From Dipteris shenzhenensis (Eukaryota): a stretch of 64,000 nt of DNA. Below, one piece after another: positions 35,701 to 57,521 of the stretch; position 1 is the first letter of the stretch; each line of letters opens with the position of its first letter. The DNA lies in the NCBI GenBank assembly GCA_047967505.1, contig CM106538.1; one strand, 5' to 3'. Below the pieces are notes generated by a model, which was not told where the DNA came from, did not search any database, and was given only the letters and a program-made list of their open reading frames with translations. The translations under genes and the position numbers were made by a program.

Positions 35701-36505
35701 CAAGGCAGTTTCAAATTTCATATTTGAACGTATTTGCACAAGGTTTGGGACACCCATGGAGATAGTCTCTGAGCATGGGAGTCCATTCTTAAATGAAGCA
35801 GTGGAGTTACTCATGGATCGTATGGGCATTGATCATCACACTTCTAGCATCTATTATCCAGCATCCATGGGTCAAACAGAGCAGACCAATGGCCTCCTTT
35901 GTAAAACCATGGGAAAGATGGCCGCAGGGAACAGGAGCCAATGGGATCAGAAGGTCACTGAAGCCATGTGGGCTTACAACATCACTCATAAAACATCTAC
36001 AGGTCACACCCCTTTTGAGTTGGTGTATGGTACTGAGGCAGTTTTACCACTAGAGATAGAGATTCCGGCCTTGAGATTGGCACAGGAACAGAGGATGACA
36101 GAAGATGAACATGTAGAGGCCAGATTGGTACAACTTGAGAAGTTAGATGAAACCCGACGCCTTGCACTACACCAAACAGAGATCCAAAAGAATCGACAAA
36201 AGGCTCGATTGGATGCTAAGATTCGCAAGGGATGGGAAAGACACTTTGCTGAGGGGGATGTTGTGCTATGCTTTGATAACAGATTGGACCACCAAATGGA
36301 TAAGAAGTTTCTGCCACTGTGGGCTGGTCCATACAAAGTCATCAAAGAACGTAGCAATGGGTCTGTACAAGTTCAGGAGCTGCATGAACCATATGGCAAG
36401 AAGGTGATCAACAAGCGTTACCTCAAGCCTTTCTTTGTGCGTGATGGTCCCAGGCATGGAAATGCTATGCATTCCCTGCCTGGGGGGGGGAACTGTTATG
36501 GATAA
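32705..36505 (+). CDS. pol polyprotein (protease, RT, RNase H, integrase), 1266 aa
   Basis: VNGGA (protease site, D>N), ILGRPWL, WRVCIDYKKLN, MPFGLTNAPATFQR, VFLDDF, HHCC zinc finger, KWGIDFVGP and GPY; gypsy domain order. The ORF ends inside the 3' LTR. Confidence 0.97.
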   Translation: MLRVPPEGSLSHRMPNIPRVNLLSESGTEDSDVEILDLKKRTRATSDPSPNRGPSYPRKKVSFSKPSDAEMADPPTEKTKRSRRSKWSPSDFPIGSGQEDYSVVQDLAHRSLSITLPQLIALTPKVRRELQQGLSTRKSNKKGKVREVSSISEEIDRHPHTIDVIIDNCRVKNVCVNGGAACNIMVPRIMKKLNLKCTRRSSTRIKVADGRRLATMGVIEDLPITVNGLTTTVNFYVVDIEDTGRSYPAILGRPWLRKSDAVSYWKTGHMSFGASKEKIPVQPGAMEPEEEEEHDSDTISSSVSESMEESDGRDEFSKEEVYMMGVSPTLPPVEKITASPQQLESMLSPDLTPSEKDEFLEMFKDFPDLFATSYHHLRHVTAIEHKIELKPDAKPVAQKYQRLGPLQTDALRSELQKLVEAGFIVPVHNTEWVSPVVVIPKENNKWRVCIDYKKLNAATKRDHHPLPFQDLILEKVSGHEMYTFCDCYSGFYQIRIAEEDVLKTTFATPWGTLAFKVMPFGLTNAPATFQRFMQMVFAPYLGDFLEVFLDDFCIFSSRKEHIMKVRLTFQRVNDANGSLNPEKCTIGATQGRLLGHVVSSEGIKPNPEKVEAILKLSPPTTKRQVRSFVNLAGYYRRFIDQYAALTWPMTMLLKDGVDFSWDEDCDHGFAQIKNALASEPILRNPDWSKTFYINPGFGEHTLASILLQQGEDRFMYPVRFASRQLLDTERRYSEADKHALSLVFCIEKFKHYVARKSFFILTSTGLAKQVLQSPNPMGRLAKWLAVLQEYDFSFKIVRGGCSNLKNALIDLEECLDVTFVAAIEVGDPWYGGIYKFLTAFSFPSESTSYERKKIRRDSRRYTLLDGVLYRQGMDGVLRWAIDADEVPKVLKHYHDGFCGGHYASDYTAKKILHAGYYWPTLFKDVTLYCKTCEPCQFFGRKDLRPGQHHPVMSIHPFQKWGIDFVGPLPMTARKKKYLLVATQYVTKWAEAITLSAANGKAVSNFIFERICTRFGTPMEIVSEHGSPFLNEAVELLMDRMGIDHHTSSIYYPASMGQTEQTNGLLCKTMGKMAAGNRSQWDQKVTEAMWAYNITHKTSTGHTPFELVYGTEAVLPLEIEIPALRLAQEQRMTEDEHVEARLVQLEKLDETRRLALHQTEIQKNRQKARLDAKIRKGWERHFAEGDVVLCFDNRLDHQMDKKFLPLWAGPYKVIKERSNGSVQVQELHEPYGKKVINKRYLKPFFVRDGPRHGNAMHSLPGGGNCYG

Positions 36506-37483: not shown

Positions 37484-39779
37484 AGTACACAGAGCATAAT
37501 AATGTTTTTTTGGATGTATGTAGGGTCCAAGCTACAATGGTGGAGTTTTACAACATGAAAGCATGGGGTAGGTTAAAATTATATTGTTTAGAGAGCTGGA
37601 ATTTTTATTGAAATCTTTTCTAATCATGTAAATCTTTTAATCTTTCAGATTGTGAAGGAAAGTTAGTATTTGTTATCAAATTGGATGAGTGTGAGGTTGT
37701 AAAAGGCCACAAGTTGGAGAGGGTTAGTATTACTTTGATGAATAAAGCCCTCGAACATGCCAAAGATAAAGATTTTAGTGTGCAATCGAAAAAGCACATT
37801 TGGTGGCTTGTCGGGTTTGAACTTCCTAAAGAGACACACTCATTCTTGAAATGGGTATTTGATAGATCTCCAATTCTAAGTGTCATAAATGCGCAAACGG
37901 AAGGAGAGTTGCTTCAAGTTGAAGGGTTCATATCATTTAAAGTTGAATGGCACATGGCAGGAGATCTTAAGACATTGAAGTGTATATTTGGAACGGAGTT
38001 GAGTGCAAATGCGACATATTCATGTCTTTATTGTATGCACTCACACCAACCTTGAGGCAGTAACATAGGAATACATAGAGGGAAAGAGCAAATAAAAAGA
38101 GGAAAAGACTTTGGGAATGCTAAAGATGTAATGAATGACATCATAGATTATGAGGCTAACAAACGGATGTATTGGAGCAATGGAGTAATGGGTTATAATC
38201 AGGATGCTGCACCCAACAGAGATCAGAACAATAAAAATTGGGATCCAATTTTAAACATTCCATTACAAAGAGTGCATTTTTGTGTGTTACATGCGGAGAT
38301 GCGGCTCATTGATAAATTGCTTTACTTGCACATTGTATATGCATGGAACATGAAACCGAAGGAGAGAGCGGCATCATGTATAGCAAGGGCCAAAGCTTTA
38401 CTCTCGAGCATGGGTCTACATGGGGGGAATGTAAAGCTAATCAAAGACGCACAATTGTCAGGAAAATCGGGAAATCTTCCAAATAAAGTGTCCATGGGAG
38501 GCTCTAAGGCACGAAGGTTTTTGTCCAATCATGGAAAACATCGATTAAATCTGCATTGGAATTATTGGAAAAAGTTATGTGATTGCACCACTAATTTGGA
38601 AGCTGATCCTCATGTTAGAACCTTGAGAATATGTGTTTGGAAAGAATTGGATAATCTGGTAAAGATCTTGAGGAAGCCTTCCATAGACGATGATGATGTG
38701 CAACTATATAAAGTCATCGTGAAAGAGTTCATTGAAGCCATGGTAGATGGATGGGGTGAATCACACATTACTCACTACATGGTGTGTTTGGTCTTTGCTA
38801 TTTTCAAAATTATAATTGCAATCAATTTATTATTGTTTACCTCATGTGTTTTTTCTATGTATGCAACACATTCTTTATGCTCATGGTCCATGGTTTCTTC
38901 GCCAATATGGTTCCTTGAATGCTTGGACTGCCCAAGGGATGGAAAAGTCTCATTATAGAGCTCGAGGTGCTTATTTCAAGAGTATGCGACATGGAGGGGG
39001 GATTAATGGAAGTAATGCTCTTCATGAGATGTTCGAGTGATTCTATCGTGGTATAGTCAGCTCCTCCTATGCAAGGAATAAAGCTTTGCAAACGGAGTTA
39101 GCCCAAGCAGTTCGTCGAACTCAAACGAGTAAAAGAAGGCATTCATGGATATCTTTGCAAGCTTCCCAAAAACATAGAAGTTGGATAGCAACCAAAAGTC
39201 GTGTTGGAAAGCGTTAGATCGCTAAACCAAGTGTACTTTGATGTTAATTAAAATCACACTTCAATATTTCTTGTGGACATTTGATTAATTGGCTCTTTGA
39301 AAAAAACAAGCGTTAAATTTTGTACTTGTGGACCCAACAAGGGTGGGCGATCAGAAAAGGTTGGGGAAGCGACCTCACGGGAGTTCAAGGGGAATTTCAA
39401 AAACCCCTTAAATAAGTTTTTTTCCCAAAAACAAACACCCCTCCTCTTCACGTAATTTTTTTCTAAAGTTGAATTTAAAAACCAAATGTTATAATGAACT
39501 AAGTAATTTTTTTGATAAATATCCCTTCTTTACAATGCACGTGGTACACTAAAATTTTGTGAGGTTAACCCCCGAGGGGACGATGACAAATAGGGGGGGG
39601 GGAGGGGTTGAGGGGGGTAAAGGGGGAAGGGAGGGGGGGGCTAACTAATAATGATGCACAAAATAAATATACCCCTATATATATGCAAATACCTTCATTT
39701 TCTCAGTACCACCAGTACTCTCTCATACTAGTACATTCCTTCCTACCATTACATTTCCCATAGCCCCACCATCATCGAC

Positions 39780-40870
39780 ATGGCAAGAATAAAGCAGACT
39801 GGAAGACCGGTAACTCCTAATCCCTCCCGATGTATACAATGCAATGATCGAAGAGAGAAGAAAGAGGAGGCAAGAGGAGGAGGAGAGGACAGAAACCAAT
39901 GAGTAAACAGATGATGATGAAGAAGATCATGGGGAGCAATCCAATTCTCAGAGTCAGCTCAAGAGCCAGAAAGCAAACCAGAAGAACAGGAGCGCAAAAG
40001 ACGCAGATTGGAAGAATGGGCCAGAGGACAAGAAGATGCCAGGAAAATGCGGATTCAATTGGCTCAACAGTAAAGGGCACAAATGGAGAGCCAACAACAA
40101 CGACCCGCATGGCACAATGCTACTTAGGACTTTCCACATTCTAGACAGGGTGGAAAATCTTTGCCAGAATTGCATCGCACAGCAAAAGGAAAAGGCAAAG
40201 CTCGTAGTAGGCGAGGTGGAGGTGGAGGTGGAGGTGGAGGTGGAGGTGGGGAGCAATCCAATTCTCAGAGTCAGCTTAAGAGCCAGAAAGTAGACCAAAA
40301 GAACAGGAGCGCAAAAGACGCAGATTGGAAGAATGGGCCAAAGGATAAGAAGATGCCAGGCAAATGCGGATTCAATTGGCTCAACAACAAAGGGCACAAA
40401 TGGAGAGCTAACAACGACGACCCGCATGGCACAATGCTACTCAAGACTTTCCACATTCTAGACAGTGTGGAAAATCTTTGCTAGAATTGCATCGCACAGC
40501 AAAAGGAAAAGGCAAAGCTTGTAGTAGGCGAGGTGGACGTGGAGGTGGAGGTGGAGTCCCTAGAAGACACCGCAGAAAGCCTCAAAGGAAGGCGCTTCAA
40601 GAGATAAGAAAGTATCAAAGTAGTGTGAACCTTCTAATCCCAAGAGCTCCGTTCGCTCGATTGGTGAAAGAGATTATGCAGTCCTACAGGGACAACTATC
40701 GTATTCAATCAATCGCACTGGTTGCCATACAAGAAGCAGCAGAAGGGGTGATCATAACCCTTCTTGAGGACACAAACTTGTGTGCAATCCATGCCAAGAG
40801 GGTTACGATCGTGGCAAAAGACATGCAGCTAGCAAGGCAGATCAGAGAAGACCCACAACTTAGGCCATAG
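39780..40870 (+). pseudogene. Histone H3-like gene of element A with an extended, internally duplicated N-terminal region
   Basis: Starts MARIKQTGR. Histone fold [28 protein letters not shown]...[17 protein letters not shown] stop and frameshifts lie in between; TATA-like TATATATA at ~39676. Confidence 0.85.
39931..40556 (+). repeat. ~317-bp tandem duplication inside the H3-like gene
   Basis: GGGGAGCAATCCAATTCTCAGAGTCAGC begins at 39931 and 40248; both copies end in (GGAGGT)n. Confidence 0.9.
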
Positions 40871-41149
40871 ATCAGATTTTTTGTTGTATTCACTATGAAC
40901 ACCAATTTTGTGCAAAGATGGTTGTAAATATTTTTTGTAATAGAATACTTTGAAAACTATTTTTCTTGTAGATTTTGGACTTTGAGCTTTCATTTTCAAG
41001 TGGATTCTTGCAGTGTATTATTTACTTCCATATCTGATGTATGTACATAATGTAATTGATTGTTGATGGTGGCAAATAATCATGGTAGAATGTAATTAGT
41101 CACTGGTAATTAGTCAATAATCATGGTAGAATGTGATTAGACACTAGTA

Positions 41150-41745
41150 TGTGATTGGGGATGCATCCCCCCAAAAAACAAAAACAAAAAAAAGCCCCTG
41201 AGGGGCCCTGGCCAGACGCCTGCACGACTTTGGGCCAGACGCCTGCGCGCACCAGGGCCCCTCAGGGGCTTTTTTTTTGTTTTTTTTAATGTATTTGTTT
41301 TTTGTGTGTGTGATGGGTGTGTGTGTAAGTGATGGGGGAAGCATCCAAAAAAAAAAAAAAAAAAAAAAGCCAAGAGGCCCTGGTGCGCGCAGTCACAACT
41401 TTGGGCCAGACGAGCCCAAAGTCACGCATGCACGCACCAGGGCCTCTCAGGGGCTTTTTTTGTTTTTTTTTTGTATTTGTTTTTTTTTTGGTGTGATGGG
41501 TGTGTGATGGGGGTAAGATATGCCCCAAAAGAAAGACATAGCCAAAACAAAAAAACAAAAAAAAGCCCCCGAGAGGCCCTGGTGTGCGCAGGCGCGACTT
41601 TGGGCCAGACGGCCCAAAGTCGCGCCTGTGCGCACCTCTTGGGGGCTTTTTTTTGTCTTTTTTAATTGGGGAATGCATCCCCCATCACTTACACACACAC
41701 ACCCATCACACACATAAGAAACAAATACAAAAAACAAAAAAAAGT
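41150..41745. repeat. Array of three GC-rich fold-back units bounded by A/T tracts
   Basis: A-tract, GAGGCCCTGG..., TTTGGGCCAGACG core, ...CCAGGGCC.CTCAGGGGC, T-tract; repeated three times with variation. Confidence 0.75.
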
Positions 41746-43014
41746 GCCTATGTCATGGCCACCTTTCGATCAAAGACGCAAAATTTTTGCCTAAATCAAT
41801 TTGCTTCTCCATGCCTGAAATGTGTCCCAATTTATACACCCATATCTTGATCATTAGCATTGAAATTTGGGACCCACGTTGAATCATGGTTTCATATGTC
41901 ATGTTGTCACATCATTTTAATCCATTGTTGCTCATAGCTATCAGTGCATTTGTTAACCTTACCATTTTGTATCAAACTTCATTGTAGTCATCACCAATGC
42001 CTTTAGAATATCAAGGCACGCTTCTAAAGAGATTTTGGCCATTTCTAGCATACTTTATAACATTTTACACCATAAGGACCTACATCTTCAATTGTGTGTA
42101 GCACCCCTTAGCCACAATTTCCATAAAAGTCAAAACCCAATCTCCTATGCTAGGATTGAGTCAGTCATATGCTTGTTCCCTATCCAAATTTGATAATACA
42201 CAAACACCAACCAAGTATACGTGTTGGATTATTGCCATCTCCATGTGTAACCATTGGAATAAGTGAGAGCTTGCCATCTCAATCATGGAGCATATATCCT
42301 CTTATTTTACATTAATCCTTCCAACTAACCATGCACATAACTAAATTAGCCACCATATTATTGTTCTATTTTCCTCCTAGGTTTGGGATGCAAAACATTC
42401 CTAGTCCCAAGATGAATCTAAATATGGAAGGGTTTGAGATTGTGCATCCAATTTAACCTTTTGTTGCTATCTTGATTAGAGTTCATCGGCAATCTTGATC
42501 TTGTCTATTCATACACCAAGTAACTTGAAGCATTCTTAAAACCTTTGATAAGGGAATGCACTTTTCTTCTAAATCAACCGTATATTTAAATTAAGGATAC
42601 ACTAAAATCCAAGAAATGAAACTCAATAATAATGCAAAACACCACCCATCTAGAAAACAAGAGAAATATATATTAAATTTTGATGTCTATACAATATTTT
42701 AGATGCACTTTTTACAAAATATTTGCTTCCTTAGCTTTAGCTACTATTGCTGCTCTCCTCTGAGTTGACAAAATAGTGGATTCACTGAAAGATTCTACAA
42801 GCTGCCCAGCATCATAAACACCTACCGAAGCACCCATAGCAGCAACCTCTTCCTGCTAGTGTCTCTCCAAAAGTAGATAGTGCCAAGTCCCGCCTCACCA
42901 AAATACACTTGCGCGCAGAAGGGGGTAAAGGCACAAGGGAGACTAGCTTTGAAAGTGCCTTGCACTTTATCATCTCCTCCTTCCCATAAGGGGAGAACAA
43001 AATATGGAAGCACA

Positions 43015-43046
43015 CATTAGGGAAAAAGGGAACTCATTTTGGGGCC
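43015..43046 (+). repeat. Left TIR of element B
   Basis: CATTAGGGAAAAAGGGAACTCATTTTGGGGCC. Confidence 0.9.
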
Positions 43047-43415
43047 CTGTAAGAAATTCACTATTTTTTGATTTATTTCTCTCCTAAAAGACCTCAAAAA
43101 TAGTAAAATACGGAAACGTGGCTCAGATTTGTCAGTAAGGACTACAGAACTGTCAATTCAAAAAGGAATAAGATAATCTTTTGTCTGACTAACACGATTT
43201 TGTATTAAATATCCTCTTAGATTTTTTTTTGTTTACCAAAGATTCCGCATCTCTTTGGCCGACGTGTGCAGGTCTTTCATTAAGAGTCCATCATTGAACT
43301 TAGTGATTGCAAGTTTTCAAAATATTCACATGGATACCGCCACACTTCCATGATTCATGTTACAAAACGACGATGAGATTGAAAAACAAACTTCGCAACC
43401 TGAGGAGCACAAAAA

Positions 43416-46151
43416 ATGGCCGATACTAGTGAGTCACTATCTGAGAAGAAGCGATTACACCATCTTCACATCGACTTGGAAGAACAATATGCTCCAGCAC
43501 AAAAAAGACGAAAGGATACGGTGCTGAATGCTCAACAGCGGGAAAATATGAGAAGAGAAGGGCTTCAACATATTGACTTATGGTGCGACGGAAGCATATA
43601 TCCAAAATGTCAAGTAAAAAACTCTACACCTCCATTTGTCAATCCCACCACATTACTGAGGTTTGCCGGCGATGGACAAAATGGACTTCTTGGTTATATT
43701 TCAGCGCAATCTGCATTTGTGGAAACGTATAAAATGATGTACCTACAAGAAAAGGGGGCCAAGATGGAGGAGATAGCCATTCGTGGAAAATTGGAGCAGC
43801 AGTTGCAGAATGAAATCGAGGAGCATTCAAAGAGTAAAAAAGAATTGACAAGAGCAAGAAAGAAGAGAACCGTGCTTGGAGACAGACAACGTAGCAGGAA
43901 GATTAAAAACATTGCAAATTTGAAGGCTGGGACTGGTGGATGCAAGCGACGAATTCAGGAAGCAAGGTTAGATTGAAATTTATCATTTTGTATACTCAAA
44001 AAGGCTCTCTTCCAGACTATATCTATTTCGTTGATTGTCGCAAAATAAGAATGGAGGTGCTGAATAATATAGTCATATAATGTTGTTATTACAGGAAATT
44101 ATTGGAGCCTGCAAAAGAAAATATGGACCCGAACCTTCTTCCTGTTAAACAAATGAAAGGATTGCTTTCTTGCGGTGTAGCAAAAGGTTTGATTGAGGAA
44201 AAAAAATACAAAACAGTCAAACGCAATGTTGTAGAGGACTTTGTATCCAATAATCAAGTTGATGGCACTATAATCCAAGAGGCTCTTGATGTTAGTGGAG
44301 TTAGCAGGAAGGGATATAGTTCGATTTTCCATGCGATATCCTCAACTTTGAAAGATCAAAGGATTAAACGAGTTTTACTGCCAAATCCAGCAACCGTGTG
44401 GAGGATAAGAGGTCATTTGAATGAAAGTATAGATGAATTTATTGGGCAGTATATCCATATTGAAGAAATATTTCATGGTGTTAAAGGAACCACTGTGTAT
44501 GATCCTTGGAACAATATATTTTTAGATCTGCAACAACTTCAAAAAAGAATGGTCGAGTTTTATGGAATAACATTTGAGGAGTGCAAAGGCATTTTGAAAT
44601 TTGTTATCAAACTGGATGAGTGTGAGGTTGTAAAGGAAAAGAAAATGGAAAGAGTTACTATTACATTGATGAATGGAGCGATTGATACATCATTGACTGA
44701 AGCGAGTTCAAAGTATTTTAGTGTGCAGTCAGAGAAACACATATGGTGGTTAGGCTCGTTCCAGGTATGATCATGGGCTGTTTTATACTTGATTTTGGTC
44801 ATTGTTTTCAAATCTGATATAGTAATACTTTTGTTTTCTATAATCTCGCAGGTGAAGACCGAAGACCATGAAACACTAGATTGGGTGTTTCATCACACGA
44901 AAATACCAACAATAATCAAAAGACAAGTGCAAGGCGAGAATCTCCATGTTGCAGGAAAAGGTGATTTTCAAGTAGAGTGGCACATGGCCGGGGATCTTAA
45001 AACACTTAAGTGCATGTATAACATTAGTAAAGGAGGCAACTCAAAGTCTCCTTGTCTTTACTGCAAAGAATCAGCTCAAGTAATGGATTCAAAATGGTGG
45101 AAGAGAGCACCTAATAGAGATAAAGTTGACCCTGACTTCAAGGCCATTCTGGACATTCCACTATGTAATGTTCACATCTGCACATTGCATGGTCTATGTC
45201 GAATTATTGAGAAATTGGTATTTTTATATATTGGATTTGCTTGGAAACTCCGTCCCGAAAAAAATAGAAAGGATGCTCTTCAAGCATTGGAAAAAGTGTT
45301 ATCCGATATAGGTCTGCATGGAGGAGATGTTCAAATCACAAAGGATTTTAAAAAGTCTACCAATGGCAAGGAGGTACCAATCAAGCCCTCTATTGGTGGT
45401 GTTAAGGCAAGAAGATTCTTGTCTCGACCCAAACACAGTAAGCAAGTAAGGCAAGGTAGAGCAGTTTCAAAGATTAATTATGGATTGTGGAAGCAAGTCC
45501 ATAATGCTGTGAAAGATCATGAGGCAGATGGGGAAGCACGAAATAGGAAGGCAGAGGTGTGGAGGTCTCTTGATCAACTCTTCATGTTCTGTGACAAAGT
45601 AACATGGACAAAGAGTGATTACAAGAACTTTGAGGAGGCAATTAAACATTTTGGGAAGTCAATGAAAGACGCGTGGACAGCCTGCAATATAACTCACTAC
45701 ATGGTAAGGTTCTGTCTTTTTCTTTTACTTAAGTGTGATCCTCTTTTTTTTATTACTTACTATGCATTCTTATGTCTTACAGCATATCATATACAACCAC
45801 CTTCCCTATTTTGTCAAAAAGTATGGATGCCCAGCTATTTGGTCTACCCAAGGCATGGAGAAGTCTCACTACATGGCACGTAATGCATTTTTTAGACACA
45901 CACAACACTATGGAGGGAGTCAGAAGGCGAATAGTCTGAAGGAAGTCTTCCAATGGTTTTACCGAGGCATACTACAAAGGCTGCATGCTAAAAGAAAAGT
46001 TGCTAGCTCCAAAATCAAGCTTGCTTTTCTTCTAGCCCAAAAGCAAAGACGAAGACAAGCTCTAGACAATTCAATTGCAGCAAAGAGACATAGACAGTGG
46101 AGGGAATCGAAGATATTTAGAAACCATAAATGGACAAGTAAACATGAATAG
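43416..46151 (+). CDS. RAG1/Transib-like DDE transposase; exons 43416-43966, 44095-44764, 44852-45703, 45783-46151; ~813 aa
   Basis: GT-AG introns join the ORFs in frame. VIKLDEC (D1), EDHETL, AGDLK (D2), CLYC, CTLH, HIIYNH and QGMEKSH (E) occur in RAG1-core order. Confidence 0.85.
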
Positions 46152-46474: not shown

Positions 46475-48163
46475 CTATTTCTCCCAGGGCCTGTTCATCG
46501 GAACTCTCTTTTTGATCTTGATTGGAGTCTTTTTCTTCTTTATTGGCTTGATGTCGACTGTCTCTTTATCCTTTTCTTCAGCTCTCTCCACCTGTTCCTC
46601 TTCTTGGACTGTGTGGCCTGATGCAATCATGGGTGGCTCTCGAAACCTTACAAGCTGGTGTTTTCCATAGCCCTCCAGATATTTGGGGTCCTTAACACCA
46701 CATGCTAATGCATAAGAAGTGTAAGACAAAAAGTAAGCGGCCCTAGAGGCCTGCTTATTCACATAATCTCCAAATATATCTATGGCAGACAACCTCTCTA
46801 TCAAAATGATCTTTTCCTTTTGCCATGAAAGAGCATGTCCACCTAAAGCCCTGGACAAACATTTTAGGAAGTAAACAATGGCTTCTCCATTGTTGCTCAA
46901 CTGCCTAAGGTAAATCAAGATCTTGGCACTGCCTAGATCATGAATATAATGAGCTAGGCCTGACATTTTGCGAAACCCAACCTGCCTGCTTCCACTTGAT
47001 CTCTGGAGGAATGTGTCATCCTCAATTTGTAGCTGCAACATATCAAAGGATTGGAGTGAGACAATACACAACCTACAAAACTAAAGTTAAGCAGAAGTCA
47101 AAGTATATGATTTGAAGTACCTTCTCATTTTCATCAGCAACAAGCAGTTCATCTTTCCAAAGATTTATCCCTCTCCCTTCTTGTACAGCCTCTTCTCTAG
47201 TCTTTTCTGTGTATAGAGCTGAGAGATTCATAGCTCCCTGTGTGAGCTGGAAGGCAGCTTCATCTGGCTCTTGGAACTTTTCAGCGTCTTTGAAACAAAA
47301 TGAAAGGGCCTCTACAGGATCAAACATTGTTTCCAAAGCCAGAAGTGATTGGTCATCCTCTATGTCAACCTCCTTGTCAAGCCTTGAAGCCTGGGCAATA
47401 AGGGAAATGGCATAGTCCTCCCTCAAATCAAACATACACTCTATATCATGGAGGAAAACATAATCCTTTCCACCAATCAACACACCTGGAAGCATGGGCA
47501 CTGCATAGTTGCTGCTCTGAACATCAAAATCTTCAACTGGCTCTGCTCCCCTCAGAGTTTTATTCCTCAGTTGAACAAGGTCAAGAGCAGCCACTTGCAG
47601 CCCCTCATCCTGAAGGTTGATATCTTCTTCTTGCTCTGCCATTTCAGAGCCCAAAGAAACATCCTCCTTTTCAGAAGCTTCAGATGTGTCTTCTTCTTCT
47701 GTTTCCTGCCCTTGTTCATCCAAAGACTCCTGACTGAAGACAATGTACATGAGAAATGCCATGCTCTCCTCCAGCACTCTGCACTTTCTGGTGTGCAAAG
47801 TAAAGTTGAATTTATAGTGATCAGGCAGGCTGTCAAATCTTCTGCTCACATGGTACCTCAACCTGTCATTGGAGACAATATGATTAATGTGCACAAAAAC
47901 CTTTTCACCTCCCACAATTCTTCCTGCCTCTGTCAGTTCTTTGAAGGCATCCCAATAGTCTGAAAGAAAATCTTTGTGTTGCTCCAGTACAGAGCTCATT
48001 GAGAACTCCATGTTGAATATACTGTGGTATAAATGGAAGTTACTCTGAGCCTTGCATTTGTGAAGAAACTCAAATAGGAGAAAATCTGGAGAACTGTCCT
48101 CTTCTGGTTCCATTTGTTTTTTGATGGAAGAATCAGCACTCTGCTCCAGCCTCTTCTTTTTGC
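46475..48163 (-). CDS. Gene X of element B, acidic protein of unknown function (exons 48163-47121 and 47032-46475; 5' exons unresolved)
   Basis: Two long ORFs joined by a GT-AG intron, with a conserved paralogue in element A. Confidence 0.75.
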
Positions 48164-48437
48164 CTGTTCAAAAACTTATATACTATGAATTCTATATGCT
48201 GACATATGCAATCAGTGAATGCATTGTATATCACCAGATAATTCCTTCATGACATCTCATCACTCACCTGGTGATTGCTGAGGTTTTATTATAGCAGCAG
48301 AAAAGTCCAGCTTCCTCTTGAAAGGTGGGGCCTGGGAGCCAGCTGTTCCAAAACAAAAACATTTCTCATCATCAAGGAAGATCTCCACAGGGCTAAAGGT
48401 AGCAAATTAATGAGGTAGAAGTGAGAAACAAATAATA

Positions 48438-48930
48438 CACAGGAATTTGCAGCAAAATGCGATATGGGCTGTTTAGAGAATTGTAAACCACTCTCCTCGC
48501 ATTTTGTTGCAAATTCTCAAATTCTGGTCATGTGCATGTCAAATCAAGAACTTGGTTCATCTCAGTGATTCCTGGACACTATGATCTCATATGCAAGAGA
48601 AATAATGGAATGAGTGATACTATTCATGAGGAATGTGTCAACAACAGGAATTTGCAGCAAAATGCGATATGGGCTGTTTAGAGAACTATAAACCACTCTC
48701 CTCGCATTTTGTTGCAAATTCTCAAGTTCTGTTCATGTGCATGTCAAATCAAGCACTTGCTTCATTTCAATGATTCCTGGACACTATGCTCTCATATGCA
48801 AGAGAAAAAATGGAATGAATGAAAATTTTCATGAGCAAGGAGTCCACAACAGGAATTTGCAGCAAAATGCGATATGGGCTGTTTAGAGAATTCCAAACCA
48901 CTCTCCTCGCATTTTGTTGCAAATTTCTTG
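48438..48930. repeat. 205-bp tandem repeat with a hairpin core (3 cores)
   Basis: GAATTTGCAGCAAAATGCGA...TCGCATTTTGTTGCAAATT at 48443, 48648 and 48853. Confidence 0.9.
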
Positions 48931-49648
48931 TTTCTGTTCATATCAACCTACAATCTAATTTCTGGGTGATTTACCACATTGTGGAAGAAGGATGGAGCTG
49001 AGTGAAGACATTGGGACATAAAAAATCCAATGGATGGAAGAAATAAATGTTGAAAAACATTGAAACCAAACTAGAACTCTGACCTTTTTTTTCCTTTTCC
49101 ATGCTGATTGAGTTGCACTGGTAAATCTCCTGCTCTTTCTCTAGCTTGAACCTTGCACTCTAGGTAACCTGGAGATCTGGCAGTACTGTCTTCAGGCAGG
49201 CTGCAGTCTGGATGGAGTGTGCTGGGTAGGAAAGAATCAGAGAGAAAGGATCAGGAGAGAGTCGTGGCAGGGATGAGAGATTGGAATCCAGGGGAGGGAA
49301 AAGTGGTTGTGGTATTCATGATGAAATAATGAATGGCACAAGTTCCAAGGAATAAAGTGTACTTTCACACGTGCCAGATTTCAAACTCCAAGAGATCTGG
49401 GTCCCATCCACACGTGTGAAAAACGACTAGATTCCACACGTGTGGGATTTAGTGATTCTTTAATTCATTTTGCACTTCTTTGTGGTATCCTGTTTTAGAA
49501 CTCTTGCCCTTTAGTCTCTGCTCTCTTGCCTCCCTACCTCCATACTCTGCAGCATCAGCATCTTGTCCAGCAGCACAGAATCATCCTCAGCACAGATTAC
49601 TCCTCAGCAGCACAGCACATCCACAGATAGACTCCAGGTCAGGAAGAA

Positions 49649-50580
49649 TGGGTTCTCCCCTTAGTCTCTGCAATCTTTTTGCCTAAAATAGAAAAAATAC
49701 ATACTGTATGGAAATGCATAGACTCAAACCAAGACAAAGAAATCACTGTAGGAAAGCAGATCTTCAAGTGTGATATTTGCATGTGATCTTCTTGCATAAC
49801 CTCCATTCATACTGTATTTGGTTGGAGAAACATAGAAATCACTGTAGGAGTGCACCAGCATGTCATTTAGAAAATTTGCAGCAAAATGCGATGTGGACCT
49901 GTTTGAAATTCCAAACTGCTCATATCGCATTTTATTGCAAATTTCTCTATTTGGCTTCTTCCACCCCTGTGATTGCCTTTTCTTTGTGAGAACATGTTCT
50001 GGTTTTTTGACTTCCATAGCTGTAGTCTTCTTGCATAAACTCCATTCATACTGTATTTGGCTGGAGAGACAAAGAAATCACTGTAGAAGTTCACCAGCAT
50101 GTCATTTCAGAAATTTGCAGCAAAATGCGATGTGGACCTGTTTGAAATTCCAAACTGCTCATATCGCATTTTATTGCAAATTTGTCTATTTGGCTTCTTC
50201 CACCTCTGTGATTGCCTTTTCTTAATGAGAACATGTCTGGTTTTGTGACTCCCCTTAGTCTCTGCAATCTTCTTGCCTAAAATAGAAAAATTACATCCTG
50301 TATGGAAATGCATAGGCTCAAACCAAGACAGAGAAATCACTGAAGGAATGCAGATCTTCAAGTGTGATATTTGCATGTGATCTTCTTGCATGACCTCCAT
50401 TCATACTGTATTTGGTTGGAGAAACATAGAAATCACTGTAGGAGTGCACCAGCATTTCATTTAAAAAATTTGCAGCAAAATGCGATGTGGACCTGTTTGA
50501 AATTCCAAACTGCTCATATCGCATTTTATTGCAAATTTCTCTATTTGGCTTCTACCACCCCTGTGATTTCCTTTTCTTTG
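49649..50580. repeat. Second repeat array with the same hairpin core (3 cores)
   Basis: AAATTTGCAGCAAAATGCGA...TCGCATTTTATTGCAAATTT at 49872, 50111 and 50466; ~49650-49990 is repeated at ~50250-50580. Confidence 0.9.
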
Positions 50581-50643
50581 TTAGAACATGTTCTTCATGT
50601 CTTTGATCTCTTTCCAATCCTTTGTATGCAGTTTTTCAGAGTG

Positions 50644-52744
50644 ATGGCAAGAACCAAATCAACTGCAAGGCAAGTTGGCAAAGGACCAAGTCTTGCAGCA
50701 ACAGCAGCTGGGACAGGTTCCAAGAAGTTTAGTGTGCCTCCAAAGGGAAGAGCTTCACATGGCAGGAAGGGTAAGCCAATGAGCTTGCTCAAGCAAAAGG
50801 CCAAAAGATTGAATAAGGGTGCAGGTGTGCTTAGGGAAATAAGGAGGCAACAGAAAGCCATAGGTTTTGCAATACCCAAAGCACCCTTTCAAAGACTGGT
50901 GAGAGAAATTTGTGACAGTTGGAACCTTGGGTTCAGGTGGAATAGAACTGCCATTCTTTCCTTGCAGGAAATGGCAGAGGATTACCTGGAGAAATATTTT
51001 GAGGATGCAATGCTTGTAGCAGCCCATGCTCACAGGGTGACTTTGATGGCCAAAGATTTCAACACTTTGTCCAGAGTGAGATGGAGATATGACAAGCTGG
51101 TTCATCCTGTGGAATGGCAGGACATCAAAATGAGAGATATATTGCTAATTCCACCTACAAGGAAGGTCAAGGTTGATGAGGTAAAGGTTGTTGAGGTAAC
51201 ACACTCAAAGAACACCAGAGGGAAGGCTGCTTATGAGGACTCACTGAAGCAGCAAGTAAAAGAAACAAAATCTGTGATAGATGTGGAAACTGGAAAGAAG
51301 GAGCTACACATACATAGAAGGTTGAAGGAGCTGGGCCCTGATGTAGTTGTACATATTGAGGATGAAGTTTCAGTCAATGATTTTGATTTGACAAAACAAT
51401 GCTTAGCAGCATTGGCTAACAAGAATGAGTATTGCTCAGATACTATCATTCTTGCAATGCTCTAGTAAGTGTCTTTAAATTTTACATTTTTTGCAAATCA
51501 ATCCTCCTTGTAACTCTTTTATAACCTACCCTAATTATGTTCTGATCCTATGCAGCATGATGAGAAGCTGGCTTCATCCCTCTGTACAACATACAGTCCA
51601 TATTGTTGATCCAGCCATTTCTTCTAGATTAAGAGATGCAAAAGAGACTCCCATGAGTATTTCCAGCTGGTTCAAACACTGCAATTTTGAAGTAATTGAC
51701 ATTTTGCTACTTCCATATCATAGCAAGTATGTGGGTGACTACTTCTTTTAAGATTCTTCTTTAATATTGGGAACTCTTGTAGCCTTTCATTTGCTTATGC
51801 TTTTTTCCTTATGCAGTGACCACTGGAGTTTTGTGTCTATTGACATCCAGCAGAAGCAGTGCTTTCTATTCAACTCTCTAAAAAACACACACAGAGAGCT
51901 GAAATTGTAAGTACTGTGTGTGCTTTCTGAACTCAAAACTTCATTATTTTGATACCATACTAACTAAATTATACATATTGCAGTTGTATTAGAAGGCTAT
52001 TAGATGCATTGGATCATTGTCCTCCAAATGTCTCTCTGTTGGATTCAATAGAGCCATTAAGTCTAGAGGTAAAAAGTCTATTAAATGCTATGTCTTTGAA
52101 CTTATTGAATAATTTTGTTTTGTGCTGATGCTCACAGTTTCTAACATTTTTTTATAACTGTACAGACACCACAACAAAATGATTCAAGTAGTTGTGGATG
52201 GAGGGTGCTGATCAATGCAAAATATATACTTTCAAGCTACTTTGAAAAGGAACAGCCAGATCTGGTAAGGAAAAATACTTTTCATTTAGCTTGAATATAA
52301 TTCATAATGATACAAAGTGTTCTAAATTATCCTCTGCCATTGCAGATGAAAGAGGATAGCTTCAGCCCCAACTATGTACATAATTTTAGAGCTCATACAA
52401 TTTTGAGGTTTTTGAGCTATGCCTCCCCCAAACCTATTGTAGCAGCTACTGTGGAGCTGGGTGAAAGCTCTAAAGTACAAGAAGGTGTCATACACCTTGA
52501 TCCCACATATGAAGCACCTGATGTTGAGGACCAGAAGCCACAGGAGCAATCACAGAGTGCTGAGGAGGAGCAGACACAGGAGCAAAGACCTGCTGCTGAT
52601 GTTGAGGAGAAGGTGGAGAAGCAGCAAAGAGAGGCTTCTGGGGCAGTGGAGGAGACAGGATGGAGCACGGACAGGATGGAGCAGCAGAGAGAAGATCCTC
52701 CAGAAAATGTAGAGCAGCCTCTGGATGAAACTGTACATAAATAG
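50644..52744 (+). CDS. Histone H3-like / Ulp1-SENP (peptidase C48)-like fusion protein; exons 50644-51464, 51556-51726, 51817-51906, 51984-52068, 52166-52264, 52346-52744; ~554 aa
   Basis: MARTKSTAR tail and H3 fold (LREIRRQQK, PFQRLVREI, HAHRVTL), then LLLPYHSNDHWSFVSID...FNSL and TPQQNDSSSCG. All introns are GT-AG and the frame is open. Confidence 0.88.
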
Positions 52745-52828: not shown

Positions 52829-54268
52829 TTATGGAGTATGTGTGATCTCAATTTTAAAATTTTCTATGTCTTTGCATTTAACTGAGCTCTCTCTTCTTCT
52901 GAGTAACTGCAAAAAAGCAATATGAATTAGAGTGGTAAATTAAACTAATAGCAATGCTTATAGAGACTAGGATAAATCAGATGGTGTACCTTTCTGTTCT
53001 TGTAGATAAATAAAAAGTCGTTTGAGATAGAACCTTCAGTCTCAAACAGAATGTCACTGCGTAATTGAGCTAGGGAGCAACATTCTCTTAACGAGATACT
53101 GGCTACCACATCACCATTCTCAAGAACATCAATATCAATAAGTTTATTTTGTGCACCAAACAACTCTTCATCTTGGTCCATTGGGACAAGCTTTGAACCT
53201 AGCATTCGACTGCGCTTGTAATAAAAAGAGAGAATAAAATTTTGTGATGCAACCATGTACTTCAGTTGCATAGAAGGTTGGACCACCTCACAAAACACTG
53301 AACTACATGTCTTCTTATCCCAACCTTTATCCAAAAATTGTGGCATGCATGCCGAATTTGTTGCTTTAACTGTGAGCATTGTTTTTGAAACCTTTACTGG
53401 AAAGGTATTAAACAAGTCTACAAAAACTGTGAGAGGCATGCACAAAGAAATTTTTACTATCCTAGTGGCAATATTGGGCCTCAGAGCTTTCTGTACTTCT
53501 GTAAAAAGCTTCGCCCTATATGCCTCTGTAACACTAGAATGTGGGTGAGGCCAATCCACCGAATTCCACGCCGGAAGGTCTTGTTTTATTAATACACCAT
53601 GTGTGTTAGCTTTGTCCAGCAACTGATAAAAATGATCAGTAAAAAATATACCCGATTGAGCTAGCTTTGTTGCACATCGACCTTGGTATTGTTGTTCTCC
53701 TATCGATCCATGCAGAACATCTATAAATCCCAGAATACAATCGATGTTTTGCCATGTCTCATACGATGAAGGATATAAATCTGAAATAAAACAACACAAG
53801 AATGTCAATAAGTTAAGAGAGAAAGCTTCATCTTAAAAATCCATACACCTCATGAAGGAAAAAACCACAATAGAAAAATATACAATTAGGCCTGTGTTGC
53901 GGAAGATTTTTTGGATAGTCTCGCAAGACAAGTTCTTTATGCATGTACACGTGCTGAATCAAAACTTCTTTCACGGATATCTTCCCTTTGGTGATTTTAA
54001 AATCTCGTACTCTTCCCTTCCACGATGCCAAGAAAATGTTTTTTGTCTGGGGTCTTTTTCTTTTGCTAGGTTGCATGAGCACCCATGCTCCTTTCGAAAC
54101 ACTAAACCTTTCCCAAGTTCCTTCTGTTTTGACTGTACTTGAATTCTCTACCGACGAAATAGAAGAAGCAGGTCGACGGGGTAAGGATGTTTGGTATAAT
54201 TCTGCCTTCGTAGCATTATCATCCACAGAGCGTCTTGCACAAGAACGGCCGTGGTTTTGGTTCACCAT
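52829..54268 (-). CDS. BAH-like plus C-terminal ubiquitin-like protein; exons 54268-53884, 53780-52990, 52906-52829; ~417 aa
   Basis: The spliced frame is open. KGAWVLMQP..WKGRVRDF..IQHVYMHKEL..PNYLYPS..IDCILGFIDV resembles the BAH pattern, and the C-terminus SLAQLRSDI..FLFIYKNRKL resembles a beta-grasp fold. Domain calls are tentative. Confidence 0.7.
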
Positions 54269-54727
54269 GGAGATTTTCTGAATCTGTAAGAATAGCAAAG
54301 TAATGTAACTAAGATAACAATTTGAAGTTTCAAGAAAGAGAAAGTGGGCAAACAGACAGTTGACGAGAAACATCTTACTCTACGCCAAACAGGATCAAGG
54401 GAGCAGTTTTGGAAAAGGAAGGCAGTTGCACAATGAGGCAATGGTGTAGAATGGTAGACCTTTCGCACGAAAGGCGGCACAATATTTAAAAATTCAAAGG
54501 AAGGTGGAAGCGGGAAGGATCTTGTCAGATAAAATGTCAGTTTAGATTCTATCTTCTTGTCCAAAGATCTTCTACGAATAAAAAACCAATCTCCTCATTA
54601 ATGTAGCACGCTTGTACTTACATAAAGTATTGTTTCTTTTTTCTATTTTCTCTTATTTTCGTGAATTTTCAACGTTACGTTGGCCTTCTATTGATTGGTT
54701 GAGAGCTTATTTTTCCAAACCGTAAAA

Positions 54728-54759
54728 GGCCCCAAAATGAGCTCCCTTTTTTCCTAATG
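54728..54759 (-). repeat. Right TIR of element B
   Basis: GGCCCCAAAATGAGCTCCCTTTTTTCCTAATG, the reverse complement of the left TIR with 2 mismatches. Confidence 0.9.
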
Positions 54760-56374
54760 CTAGGCTATGGTGCTCGAACATTCCCATATAGTGTCCTAGT
54801 GCTAAATCCACACCGATGATGTCACCTCGACCCCCTTTACGTGTCGCAAACTGATCAACTTCGATGACGTCTTGAAAATTGAGATAACATCAATAATCTT
54901 CTCAATGCCAAACTAAGAACATAAATTCATTCATATTGACAAAATATCATGAGCTTACAATGTGGGCAGCATCTTGTTCATCCATTCCCGACCGAGTTAT
55001 ATCGATGGAGCTTTTGCTCTCATCAATTGCTGGAGGTGGTGCCGATGATGAGGCCTCTGCAGTATTCTCAAGTCTTTGGCGTTTCTCGTTTCTGTGCCCT
55101 CTCTGGCTCCAATCTTTCTTGGACCTCACAGAACTCCGTCTCTGTAACTGGTGCATTAGTAGAGTCATGCATTTCCTCCCACACAGTTAAGATCGGATGC
55201 TCCAAAGTGTTTGCAGGTGCCAAATTTGTGCACCTATCCAACCCCTCTTCTAGGTAACCTAAGTTACTACTACTCTCCCAAGTGGAGAGTGCCCCGAGTA
55301 CTTCATCTTCTCTCAAATTTTTAATATATTGAATGTCAATCAATAATAAATATTCTCTGTTTTCAATCAAAATATACGGAAGGGTTTGCATCAAAACCTC
55401 ATCCGTCATACCTTCTTCCTCCTATTTTTGCTCTCCTTCCTCCTCTTCCTCTTCTAGCTGTCGTGTGGGGGATGATGTCCCACCTCCTTCGGGAACCACA
55501 ACCAACTTTGTCGTCTGCTCTATTTCTGCTATGTGCTTTCCCTTGTCCAAAGTTGCACTAGACCAATCTAGAGCAATGGCGGCTTCCGCAACCACATCAG
55601 GATTCTCCTCAACGTCCACATCTTGCCCTGCTGCTAGAAGAAGAGGTGGCTTTACATTGATGAATGGAGGTGCATCTGTGTCCTCCATTTCCAAAAGAAT
55701 TACACAATAGGCTATTTCCAAGGATACAAAACGAGTTCCTATAGGACCCGCTTGCAGATCCAACTCTTCATCCTTGGAAATCCTTCTAAAACTTTTTGGA
55801 CTAAGGGATTTGCAAATTCTTTGCAATCTAAACTTGAAAGTGCTATCAACCCGGCAACAGTTAATGAAGAGATTCACAGGAACCCACTGTACTCTATCTA
55901 TGTCTAGCCGGATTAGGTAAGGCTTGATTTTCTCTCTCACGTAATCTACCACATCTCTAAAGAGATCTAGATGCTTGTGGACTGTGCCGATGACATCTAT
56001 TTGACGATGAAAAATGTCATACAACTCTGCCTCTCTACTTGAATGACGAGTAGAAGTGACGAAGTCATGGTATGCCTCGTGGGGTGTGGCCATTGGAGGT
56101 TTGTGGAAGATGGCAATAGCAGGCTGTCTAGGAGATGAGGACAATAAAGGCTATGTCAATCCTAACGGCCCTTTATATAGTTGACTTCAGTCTCTTTAAA
56201 TACCTTAAAGGTCCAACTACAATTTAGATAATAAAATATTGGACAATGTAATATATTGGCCTAAATAATTTGCCATCATATTCCACTCCTACCTCCCCCC
56301 GCCACCCAAAATAATGGTTTTTTTTTTGGAATTTAGGAGGCCCTATGTTAGTACAAATGACATCACACTTAACA

Positions 56375-56592
56375 AAAACTATTACATTTAGTCAAAAACT
56401 ATTACATTTAGTCAAAAACTATTACAACACAATTTCAAAAGTTTTACATTTATTCAAGTGCTATTACAACACACTTCAAAAACTATATCATATTTTCAAA
56501 ACTATTACAACACACATCAAAAACTACTAATTTTATTAAGTATACTCATTGCCAGTACAAATGACATCACACTTCAAAAACTATTACATTTA
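56375..56592 (+). repeat. Short dispersed-tandem motif AAAACTATTACA
   Basis: The motif recurs about 8 times at ~20-30-bp spacing between two genes of element A. Confidence 0.7.
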
Positions 56593-57521
56593 TTCAATAC
56601 CCGTATGAATGGACAAGTTATAAGGAGGCTTCCATTTCTCAAGCATTAATGTTCCTTCGAGTTGCCTTCTCACTATCTTCCCATTTAGTGTAAAGAAAAA
56701 ATCACTATCATCAAAGGTGATAGCGATATATTCTCGAACATGCTTCAAGCTCCAACTACCTATGACCTCAAGATATTGGATATCCCCATTGGGCATATGT
56801 ACCTCTACCTCTGTGGTGTCCACTACATCACAATCCATAGGTATCCATGTGCCATGATTATTTTTCCAACGTCTGTAAGTGTATCTCATGTAGTAAATAC
56901 TTCGCACTACTTGATATCTTATTACTATACTTTCTTGAGTAAGTATACATCGAAAATGGTCTCCCTTCTGCAAACCTTCCCTAACATCCCACATTGGGTA
57001 TAGAAGATTATCAAGAAATTCATTTTCTAGGCCTTTGCATACCCACATGGTCTTTGTCTTGTGAATGAAGACTGATTTGAAAAAATAAATAAATGTAATG
57101 GAGGGCATGAACCAACTAACACCCACATATTTTGAACCGAAAGTAAACTTCATTGATGATTGAATATTTGATCTCATGTTCATTCTAAATGCATCTATAG
57201 AGAATGGATCAGGAAGAGGCCATTCTAGACTATCAAAGTTAGGGAGAGGAATAGGACATAGGCTTCCATATGCACCTTCTCTTCGAGGAACTTGGTAACA
57301 TAAATTATAGAAAAAAATACTAGACTTTGTCAAGGAGGCAGCACTCCGTCCTGAGAACATTAATTCCCCAATATTTGAATGGAAAGCTTGAAATATTCCC
57401 GTGAGACTATCCAGAGGCTAGGTTTCAACTTTGGTGCAGGGAAAGATATCTACATAGAAAGCAAAGAAAGATGTTAATGGGCCAATCAATCTCTCTCACT
57501 CTCTACCTATCTCTCTCTCTC

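Follow-up and report, generated by a model that had tools for sequence, protein, structure and literature searches.

A fern gene predicted to join an H3-type histone fold and a Ulp1-type protease domain in a single polypeptide

RESULTS

Gene structure and splicing

Within a 64,000-nt stretch of the genome of the fern Dipteris shenzhenensis (GenBank assembly GCA_047967505.1, contig CM106538.1), referred to here as the window, we found a predicted six-exon gene on the plus strand, at 50644-52744, whose product begins as a histone of the H3 type and continues in frame into a cysteine protease domain of the Ulp1/SENP type (Pfam Peptidase_C48, PF02902; hereafter C48). We regard this fusion of H3 and Ulp1 as very probably genuine and as conserved among ferns. 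It had been proposed in an initial annotation of the window, and the searches reported below bear it out: the histone match is far above its cut-off, the joined product is recognized by a profile of its relatives at a score that shuffled versions do not approach, and the same architecture recurs in other ferns. The details given in that annotation were also found in the sequence, namely six exons encoding ~554 aa, the tail ARTKSTARQ with Lys at position 4 (K4), Gln in place of Lys at position 9 and no ARKS motif, a His within DHW, an Asn within FNS, an oxyanion Gln, a Cys, and an acidic tail.

The joined exons amount to 1665 nt, that is, 554 codons and a single terminal stop, starting from the ATG at 50644-50646. 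All five introns are of the GT-AG type: the donors of introns 1-5 read GTAAGT, GTATGT, GTAAGT, GTAAAA, and GTAAGG, respectively, and the five acceptors (5/5) end in CAG. The introns are 77-97 nt long, with a GC content of 0.27-0.34 against 0.43 in the coding sequence. When read unspliced, the frame closes at a TAG (51463-51465) that overlaps the consensus GTAAGT donor of intron 1, and two consecutive ATG codons stand directly after the acceptor of this intron, at the start of exon 2. Unlike an H3 of ~136 aa, which ends soon after helix alpha3, the window protein has ~408 residues C-terminal to alpha3, and its final 85 residues contain 25 Asp and Glu versus 8 Lys and Arg. The parts of the gene are as follows.

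50644-51464, plus strand: exon 1 (273 codons plus 2 nt), encoding the H3-like tail, the histone fold, a family-specific extension, a helical linker, and the first part of C48
50647-50814, plus strand: N-terminal tail, residues 2-57, with the ARTK start, K4, Gln at position 9, and ARKS absent
50815-51081, plus strand: histone fold, residues 58-146 (end of alphaN to alpha3), from Pfam PF00125, PDB H3 chains, and an H3/CENH3 alignment
51082-51354, plus strand: post-alpha3 extension (RWRYDKL...KMRDILLIPP block) and linker, residues 147-237, kept in the family consensus and in members
51355-51462, plus strand: start of C48 within exon 1, residues 238-273, with an S-D motif aligned to the L-N-D motif of SENP2
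51465-51555, plus strand: intron 1, 91 nt, phase 2, GTAAGT...CAG
51556-51726, plus strand: exon 2, central part of C48
51817-51906, plus strand: exon 3, 90 nt, with His333, Trp334, and Asn350 (the Asp position)
51984-52068, plus strand: exon 4, variable helical part of C48
52166-52264, plus strand: exon 5, 99 nt, with the oxyanion Gln393 and the catalytic Cys399
52346-52744, plus strand: exon 6, end of C48 and the acidic Glu/Gln-rich tail, with the stop codon at 52742-52744

Histone portion

Exon 1 matched the Pfam family Histone (PF00125) with an E-value of 1.8e-26 and 93.2 bits (cut-off 26.4) over residues 41-141. In the PDB, each of its 60 best matches (77-85 bits) was an H3 or an H3/CENP-A chimera, with H3.1/CENP-A chimeras in the first two places. 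The first 60 residues contain 16 Lys and Arg and no Asp or Glu, and the ARTK start with K4 is present in 26/26 family members compared, none of which carries an ARKS motif. Position 9 is more variable, being Lys in 16 of these members, Arg in 7, Gln in two (the window protein and the relative P0002), and Asp in one. The earlier description of a histone that cannot be methylated at K9 therefore fits the window copy and P0002, and it is not a trait of the family.

To place the fold among H3-type histones, we used a tree of 91 columns and 67 rows, comprising the window product, 27 family sequences, 19 angiosperm CENH3, 10 canonical H3, and 10 other matches. The family formed a single clade, with a support of 99-100 and a stem of 0.94 changes per column. 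An origin from CENH3 was considered because the best PDB matches are H3/CENP-A chimeras and because residues are held in common. In the tree, which contained no fern CENH3, the family and CENH3 lay on one side of a branch with a support of 79, unstarred. Five derived positions are common to the family and CENH3 only and six to the family and canonical H3 only, while 37 of the 62 columns having a majority residue in the family, CENH3, and canonical H3 carry the same residue in all three. Loop 1, which is longer in CENH3 by the usual criterion, is of canonical length. Taken together, the tree and the shared positions appear to favor neither CENH3 nor canonical H3 as the source of the fold, and a CENH3 origin is neither supported nor rejected by them.

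Pairing with H4 was evaluated on a model of the complex between exon-1 residues 38-175 and residues 1-103 of the H4 in record P0007. The complex scored 0.84, the best of three controls reaching 0.01, and thereby reached a mark met by 51 of 78 solved complexes and by 2 of 108 mismatched pairs; the contact agreement between runs was at least 82% and the predicted local distance difference test (pLDDT) of the partner at least 72. This model, of a kind that the initial annotation had recommended, supports the capacity of the histone fold to pair with H4. As H3-H4 is a solved textbook pair, the score may reflect likeness to solved nucleosomes, and so it indicates that the pairing surface is still H3-like and does not by itself imply binding.

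Protease domain and active site

Exon 3 alone (29 aa) matched C48 with an E-value of 0.0011 and 19.3 bits, under the cut-off of 20.7. A hidden Markov model (HMM) of the family, built from seven relatives with the window excluded, gave the joined window product 150 bits over residues 238-441, while 200 shuffles of the same product scored at most 4 bits. The profile of these seven whole relatives in turn significantly matched SENP2 (E 1.5e-7), SENP1 (E ~4e-6), SENP8, and Ulp1. In all, 18 chains had an E-value <0.01, and 17 of them are named SENP/Ulp proteases, the remaining one being labeled a "conserved membrane protein". Searched individually, P0138 (34.4 bits), P0137 (25.6), and P0131 (22.8) passed the C48 cut-off; P0133 (16.6) and P0134 (20.1) stayed below it, and P0135 gave no C48 match in Pfam. 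Thus, of the profile searches that had been suggested as a check, the histone part came out above its cut-off and so did C48 in three relatives, but not in exon 3 of the window taken alone. A phmmer search with the relative P0009 against 1.84 billion representatives yielded 10 proteins in all, none of them a canonical Ulp.

The AlphaFold2 model of P0137, computed from a 29-row alignment, had a pLDDT of 85-95 in the protease domain. With this model, the top Foldseek matches were Ulp1, SENP1/2/5/7, and NEDP1 (E 6e-8 to 1e-6), and VIA-align superposed it on SENP/Ulp1/NEDP1 structures with Z scores of 16-18 and a root mean square deviation of 2.3-3.5 A over 156-192 residues. In the model, alpha3 is followed by a short helix and then by a stretch of low confidence, after which a helix of 47 residues (176-222) leads to the protease domain. 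The C48 homology and the Ulp1 fold are established for the family, of which the window domain is a member; the fold is assigned to the window domain because it matches at 150 bits an HMM that includes P0137.

The catalytic His333 (51821-51823) lies within DHW and is followed by Trp334, and Asn350 (51872-51874), within FNS, occupies the position of the catalytic Asp. In agreement with this, the SENP2 profile alignment puts Asn350 on the D of the SENP2 D-S motif, which is the catalytic Asp column. The oxyanion Gln393 (52175-52177) precedes Cys399 (52193-52195) by six residues in a PQQ...CGW motif. In eight aligned sequences, counting each position only where it is covered, His was found in 7/7, Gln in 6/6, and Cys in 6/6, and the Asp site holds Asn in 6/7 and Ser in P0130. 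The third member of the catalytic set is Asn in papain-type cysteine proteases, and in clan CE it may be Glu or Asp. Because His, Gln, and Cys are kept among copies that are just 25-30% identical, the alignment argues for a working center of the His-Asn-Cys type.

Fern relatives and conservation of the fusion

The family HMM alignment begins at residue 238, with ~36 residues of exon 1 still to come, and in P0137 the stretch superposed on Ulp1/SENP already includes 44-66 residues ahead of the point equivalent to the exon 1/2 boundary (residue ~268). Exon 1 thus encodes both the histone fold and the beginning of the protease fold. Because the C48 fold starts inside exon 1, the fusion does not depend on intron 1 alone, and for the same reason the separation of the two domains at the unspliced TAG, which the initial annotation had named as the way in which the fusion might fail, loses its force.

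Family members keep the C48 segment of exon 1 and the S/T-D motif within it. Among 13 printed relatives, 6 stop 7-8 residues past this motif and 2 more continue into unrelated hydrophobic sequence. This is the pattern expected when a shared phase-2 GTAAGT intron is read unspliced by the gene caller, so the short open reading frames (ORFs) of the family give no grounds for assuming a short protein. Other fern models read through the exon 1/2 junction, namely P0003 and P0137. The latter, a 403-aa protein from Adiantum nelumboides, carries both Histone (E 2.6e-23) and Peptidase_C48 (25.6 bits) in one uninterrupted model. In Ceratopteris richardii, P0138 is a protease-only model that starts with the exon-1 C48 segment.

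The models P0003, P0131, and P0009 come from Adiantum capillus-veneris. P0003 lacks exactly the 90-nt exon 3 of the window, with the His, and both P0009 and P0131 lack the 99-nt exon 5, with the Cys. As each of them misses exactly one window exon, the exon borders are common to the family. The gaps may mean that exons were overlooked in annotation, or that isoforms lacking a catalytic residue exist; the latter is possible because exons 3 and 5 are multiples of three and the frame is kept when they are skipped.

In Adiantum nelumboides, the family has at least 10 gene models (P0001, P0002, P0019, P0028, P0030, P0130, P0135, P0137, P0139, and P0140), three of which fall in one 90% cluster and are located on three contigs. 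P0139 (817 aa) is a disrupted copy annotated as one gene: it is nearly identical to P0137 and enters gag/aspartic protease sequence after the His exon. Across lineages, family copies are ~25-30% identical, and one close relative, at 78-82% identity, has the end of exon 1 nearly unchanged. The named members are all Pteridaceae. UniProt labels the two parts separately, with a histone domain on P0003 and a ubiquitin-like protease profile on P0138. A metagenome scan with exon 1 produced 261 pattern matches and 0 confirmed ones.

Genomic context

The window is rich in retroelements. A Ty3/gypsy element occupies 30088-36505 on the plus strand, with gag, an RNase H-like ORF, and a reverse transcriptase-RNase H-integrase ORF, and it is probably young since this last ORF, a Ty3-type pol of 1268 aa (32699-36505), is unbroken. 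Fragments of copia reverse transcriptase are found at 665-2056 on the minus strand. The features around the fusion gene that bear on a possible mobile element are the following.

37486-39196, plus strand: paralog of the ORF run at 43404-46151, 32-44% identity; tblastn E 2e-59 for the main piece
40412-40870, plus strand: second divergent H3-like ORF, 1.2 kb downstream of 37486-39196; tblastn E 2e-16, Pfam Histone E 1.8e-35
43404-46151, plus strand: four long ORFs (190, 229, 370, and 147 aa) upstream of the fusion gene, no family in Pfam
48439-50594, no strand assigned: tandem arrays upstream of the fusion gene, with 205-nt units (3 copies, 48439-49053) and ~355-nt units (3 copies, 49655-50594)

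The window contains two diverged versions of one arrangement, in which a large ORF precedes an H3-like gene on the same strand: unit A (37486-39196 and 40412-40870) and unit B (43404-46151 and the fusion gene, 50644-52744). The ORFs at 37486-39196 and 44081-46148 are 33% identical (BLASTP E 2e-48) and collinear over three pieces. A further piece of the unit A ORF lies at 28106-28390 (plus strand), on the far side of the Ty3 element, which seems to have split it. The runs at 43404-46151, 37486-39196, and 28106-28390 have in common conserved C-x-x-C and H-x4-H motifs, which come after an acidic G-D motif.

The H3-like ORF of unit A has no Met before the fold, which is 42% identical to that of the fusion gene, and no protease remnant was found when the sequence behind it was searched. 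The tree gave it no firm place (p-AU 0.55, in the approximately unbiased test, for grouping with the family). Upstream of it, at 39848-40484, ~290 bp are tandemly duplicated and code for a basic stretch resembling A-R-K-Q-T, which may be a degenerate H3 tail exon. Between the two units, 41137-41850 is of low complexity and open in several frames on both strands (Lys-rich, with P-R-G-P-G-like repeats).

The 370-aa ORF of unit B (44771-45880) adjoins RAG1/Transib clusters by language-model features (0.95; 183/256 features), and its ten best family-bearing matches in the protein atlas all belong to one family, with a recognition value of 2006 against a mark of 2300. As language-model features are the sole basis for a RAG1/Transib-like transposase, we treat it as a lead only; if true, it would place a Transib-like transposase in a fern. 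The flanking ORFs matched no Pfam family at E-values up to 10, and a sequence search of the PDB returned one match, at chance level. AlphaFold2 modeled 44771-45880, with its single paralog as the alignment, at a pLDDT of 36. Among 20 long ORFs scanned in the window, none belonged to a Mutator-like element (MULE) or VANC family.

A 37-nt inverted pair (43015-43051 and 54723-54759) brackets the fusion-gene unit. The motif occurs three times in the window, compared with 0 expected in shuffles. Its third copy, at 5773-5795, resembles only one arm beyond the core, and the copies at 5773 and 54728 share ~150 nt more. The pair was rejected as the ends of an element on account of this partial third copy and the lack of a target-site duplication. 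In the tandem arrays, each unit is built round a palindrome of ~75 nt that matches itself in both orientations. The distance from the end of the arrays to the start codon of the fusion gene is 50 nt, which raises the possibility that the arrays serve as a promoter or form a structure like a miniature inverted-repeat transposable element.

Just downstream of the fusion gene are two paralogous minus-strand ORFs (52945-54379 and 56590-57417; 26% identity, E 1e-29), for which Pfam, the PDB, and the protein atlas contained no match; nor did the atlas contain a match for a 295-aa minus-strand ORF. Additional long ORFs without a family assignment are located on the minus strand at 46475-48167 and 55068-56150.

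DISCUSSION

A histone that may carry its own deconjugating enzyme

In our view, the gene described here is probably an intact, six-exon member of a fern-restricted, multi-copy family, whose product enters nucleosomes and deconjugates a ubiquitin-like modifier in their vicinity. This reading stands on what is demonstrated above: an open frame, homology of both domains, the fold modeled for a relative, and a conserved architecture with conserved active-site residues. The single polypeptide would consist of an H3-type tail with an invariant K4, a fold able to pair with H4, an extension and helical linker, a C48 (clan CE) domain, and an acidic tail. Pairing with H4 would bring it into nucleosomes, and the long helical linker, as it appears in the model of P0137, would keep the protease domain away from the nucleosome face. 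An appendage at the C-terminal end is sterically plausible, as chromatin routinely takes up H3 variants with a C-terminal tag and CENP-A exposes its C-terminal tail on the nucleosome face. Once in place, the protease would strip a ubiquitin-like modifier from neighboring chromatin proteins or histones, most likely SUMO, with NEDD8 or ubiquitin as possible substrates, and the outcome would be a heritable local zone of deconjugation. A possible role of the acidic tail is to cover the basic histone part until deposition. As an outline, the mechanism put forward in the initial annotation, a nucleosomal histone that tethers a deSUMOylase or deubiquitinase to chromatin, is plausible, and the context possibly points to a transposon-borne gene instead of a host silencing factor. 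A self-cleaving polyprotein was also considered and dropped, as no Gly-Gly site was seen in the window linker.

Several results weigh against this reading. The six-exon splicing is itself predicted from the sequence, and it was the family HMM that scored the 554-aa joined product as a whole, the Pfam and structure methods having covered exons or relatives. Searched singly against Pfam, exons 2, 4, and 5 gave no C48 match, and the same was true of P0009, while P0003 (15.8 bits) and P0130 (17.0 bits) fell below the C48 cut-off. Several relatives are cut short, miss single exons, or are broken by retroelements, as in a decaying or mobile family. On the histone side, the Arg63 of H3 is replaced by Pro, as in plant CENH3, the H4 used for the complex was a mammalian sequence from a chimeric record (P0007), and the histone portion of the P0137 model was poor as a monomer (pLDDT 50-60). 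In the active site, the window protein departs from the His-Asp-Cys triad in having Asn350 for Asp. In SENP/Ulp1, two Trp residues clamp the Gly-Gly tail of the substrate, and the one before N-D forms half of that tunnel. At this position, two residues before the N-D of SENP2, the window protein has Tyr and other members have Glu, Asp, Leu, or Lys. The exchange of Asp for Asn and the loss of the Trp therefore leave room for an altered activity or substrate, or for a domain that only binds.

Comparison with known systems

The protease domain is like Ulp1, SENP, and NEDP1 (MEROPS family C48, clan CE) in its fold, as modeled for P0137, and in the order and spacing of the H-W, Q, and C-G motifs. 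It is unlike them in having Asn for Asp, in the loss of the Trp before N-D, and in its location behind a histone fold; moreover, the fern single-sequence search does not reach the canonical Ulps, and Pfam scores are at or below threshold. With histone H3 and CENH3, the family has in common the ARTK tail with K4, the fold, most of the positions that contact DNA and H4, and the predicted pairing with H4. What sets it apart is a separate clade on a long stem, the post-alpha3 extension, ~400 additional C-terminal residues, a variable position 9, and the lack of ARKS. To our knowledge, core histones almost never carry enzymes. The animal histone macroH2A, an H2A-type histone with a C-terminal macro domain, resembles the fern protein in that a core-histone fold bears a large folded C-terminal domain on a linker and the nucleosome displays the extra module, but it is an H2A and not an H3, its module is not a protease, and it belongs to animals and not to ferns.

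Two transposon systems are also relevant. KIU/Kaonashi are VANC proteins with a transduplicated Ulp1 domain, encoded by Arabidopsis VANDAL transposons (MULEs without terminal inverted repeats), and the passages of the review dealing with them state that KIU-bearing elements induce hypomethylation of related elements, the role of Ulp1 in KIU itself being given there as unknown (PMC13317346). In the terms of these passages, the fern family is similar in combining a plant Ulp1-type domain with a partner directed to chromatin and in being multi-copy and possibly mobile. It differs in its partner, which is a histone fold instead of VANC, in the lack of a MULE transposase among the neighboring ORFs scanned, and in its lineage, the ferns. 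In Dothideomycetes, the H3 captured by hAT elements is described, in the sections concerned, as derived from a canonical H3 transcript, intronless, and mostly truncated or mutated (PMC6710886). Both cases involve an H3-type coding sequence that was amplified and tied, in ours only possibly, to a DNA transposon; judged by those sections, the fern family is unlike the fungal one in being old, intron-bearing, apparently constrained, and fused to an enzyme domain.

Alternative explanations

It is a real possibility, although we stop short of favoring it, that the fusion gene is cargo of a DNA transposon, with the H3 variant and the Ulp1 domain encoded by the element and countering SUMO-dependent silencing, in the manner of the VANC protein KIU. 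This explanation overlaps with the reading of a nucleosomal deconjugase in mechanism and differs from it in whose interest the gene serves. In its favor are the two diverged units of a large ORF and a same-strand H3-like gene, and the apparent splitting of the unit A ORF by Ty3 is what would be expected of dispensable DNA. The resemblance of the 370-aa ORF to RAG1/Transib in language-model features and the abundance of the family in Adiantum nelumboides (at least 10 models, including three from as many contigs that share one 90% cluster, and one broken by gag/aspartic protease sequence) agree with it as well. Ulp1 domains are, according to the relevant part of the review, recurrent transposon cargo in plants (PMC13317346), and the capture of H3 by hAT in fungi is a further precedent within the sections cited (PMC6710886). 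Nevertheless, no element ends could be defined, since the 37-nt inverted pair is without a target-site duplication, and the flanking ORFs have no sequence match in Pfam or the PDB. The atlas value of 2006 is below the mark of 2300, and the structure model of the 370-aa ORF has a pLDDT of 36. The facts listed in favor of cargo would also follow from an old tandem duplication of a host locus combined with polyploid homeologs in Adiantum.

The other explanations concern the product itself. We think it rather unlikely that C48 is a pseudo-enzyme that binds SUMO or another ubiquitin-like protein, the histone then serving as a chromatin-embedded reader or trap. Such a role would suit the Asn (6/7) or Ser (1/7) at the Asp site, the lack of conservation at the first Trp of the tunnel, and the strong divergence seen in the phmmer search with P0009, which gave 10 proteins and no canonical Ulp; yet His (7/7), Gln (6/6), and Cys (6/6) have been kept over lineages with 25-30% identity, which indicates selection on catalysis, and papain-type proteases have Asn, and clan CE Glu or Asp, as the third member. 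That two products are made, intron 1 being mostly retained to give a 273-aa H3 variant and the downstream exons being a separate gene or a remnant, seems very unlikely to us. The TAG overlapping the donor, the ATG ATG after the acceptor, the many database ORFs of the family that end at this point, and the protease-only P0138 could all be read in this way, but a phase-2 GTAAGT donor makes a stop in any unspliced reading, so that genomic ORF calls must end there. Besides, the first 36 residues of C48 in exon 1 would serve no purpose at the end of a 273-aa protein and yet are conserved, P0138 also begins with the exon-1 segment, and P0003 and P0137 cross the junction. Barely credible, finally, is a functionless and decaying chimeric pseudogene that arose by exon shuffling or transduplication. 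A transposon-rich neighborhood and relatives with truncated or interrupted models would be in line with it, but the 554-codon frame is unbroken over six exons and five canonical introns, the active-site residues are conserved between copies ~30% identical, and the relative with 78-82% identity keeps the end of exon 1 nearly unchanged.

If the gene does serve a transposon, anti-silencing would be its natural reading, by analogy with the Ulp1-bearing VANC protein KIU. In its strongest form, which we consider unlikely but worth stating, fern DNA transposons (possibly RAG1/Transib-like) would encode their own K4-tailed H3 variant with an active Ulp1-type deconjugase and thereby a self-propagating anti-silencing state. 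If true, an eraser of SUMO-dependent silencing marks would be built into the nucleosomes assembled on the element or close to it, and the chromatin state would be written by the mobile element instead of the host.

Novelty and significance

A survey of chromatin proteins captured by transposons speaks, in the portion relevant here, of reader domains (bioRxiv 10.1101/2021.11.30.470311), and our search of the full-text literature found no description of a histone-C48 fusion, although the supplementary tables of that survey may list such an architecture. Both parts, the H3 variant and the C48 protease, belong to known kinds, and the proteins are present in databases, where they are uncharacterized; it is the combination that is apparently undescribed in print.

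If the reading of a nucleosomal deconjugase is true, tethering a protease to an H3 variant would represent a novel means of placing catalysis in chromatin, one that is stoichiometric, positioned by deposition, and inherited with the nucleosome, and the protein would offer engineers a natural design of a histone-tethered enzyme. SUMO is linked to heterochromatin and to transposon silencing in plants and animals, and fern genomes are very large and rich in repeats. In this setting, a multi-copy and perhaps transposon-borne family of this kind is a candidate anti-silencing or chromatin-boundary factor, which may be tested in Ceratopteris, a transformable fern.

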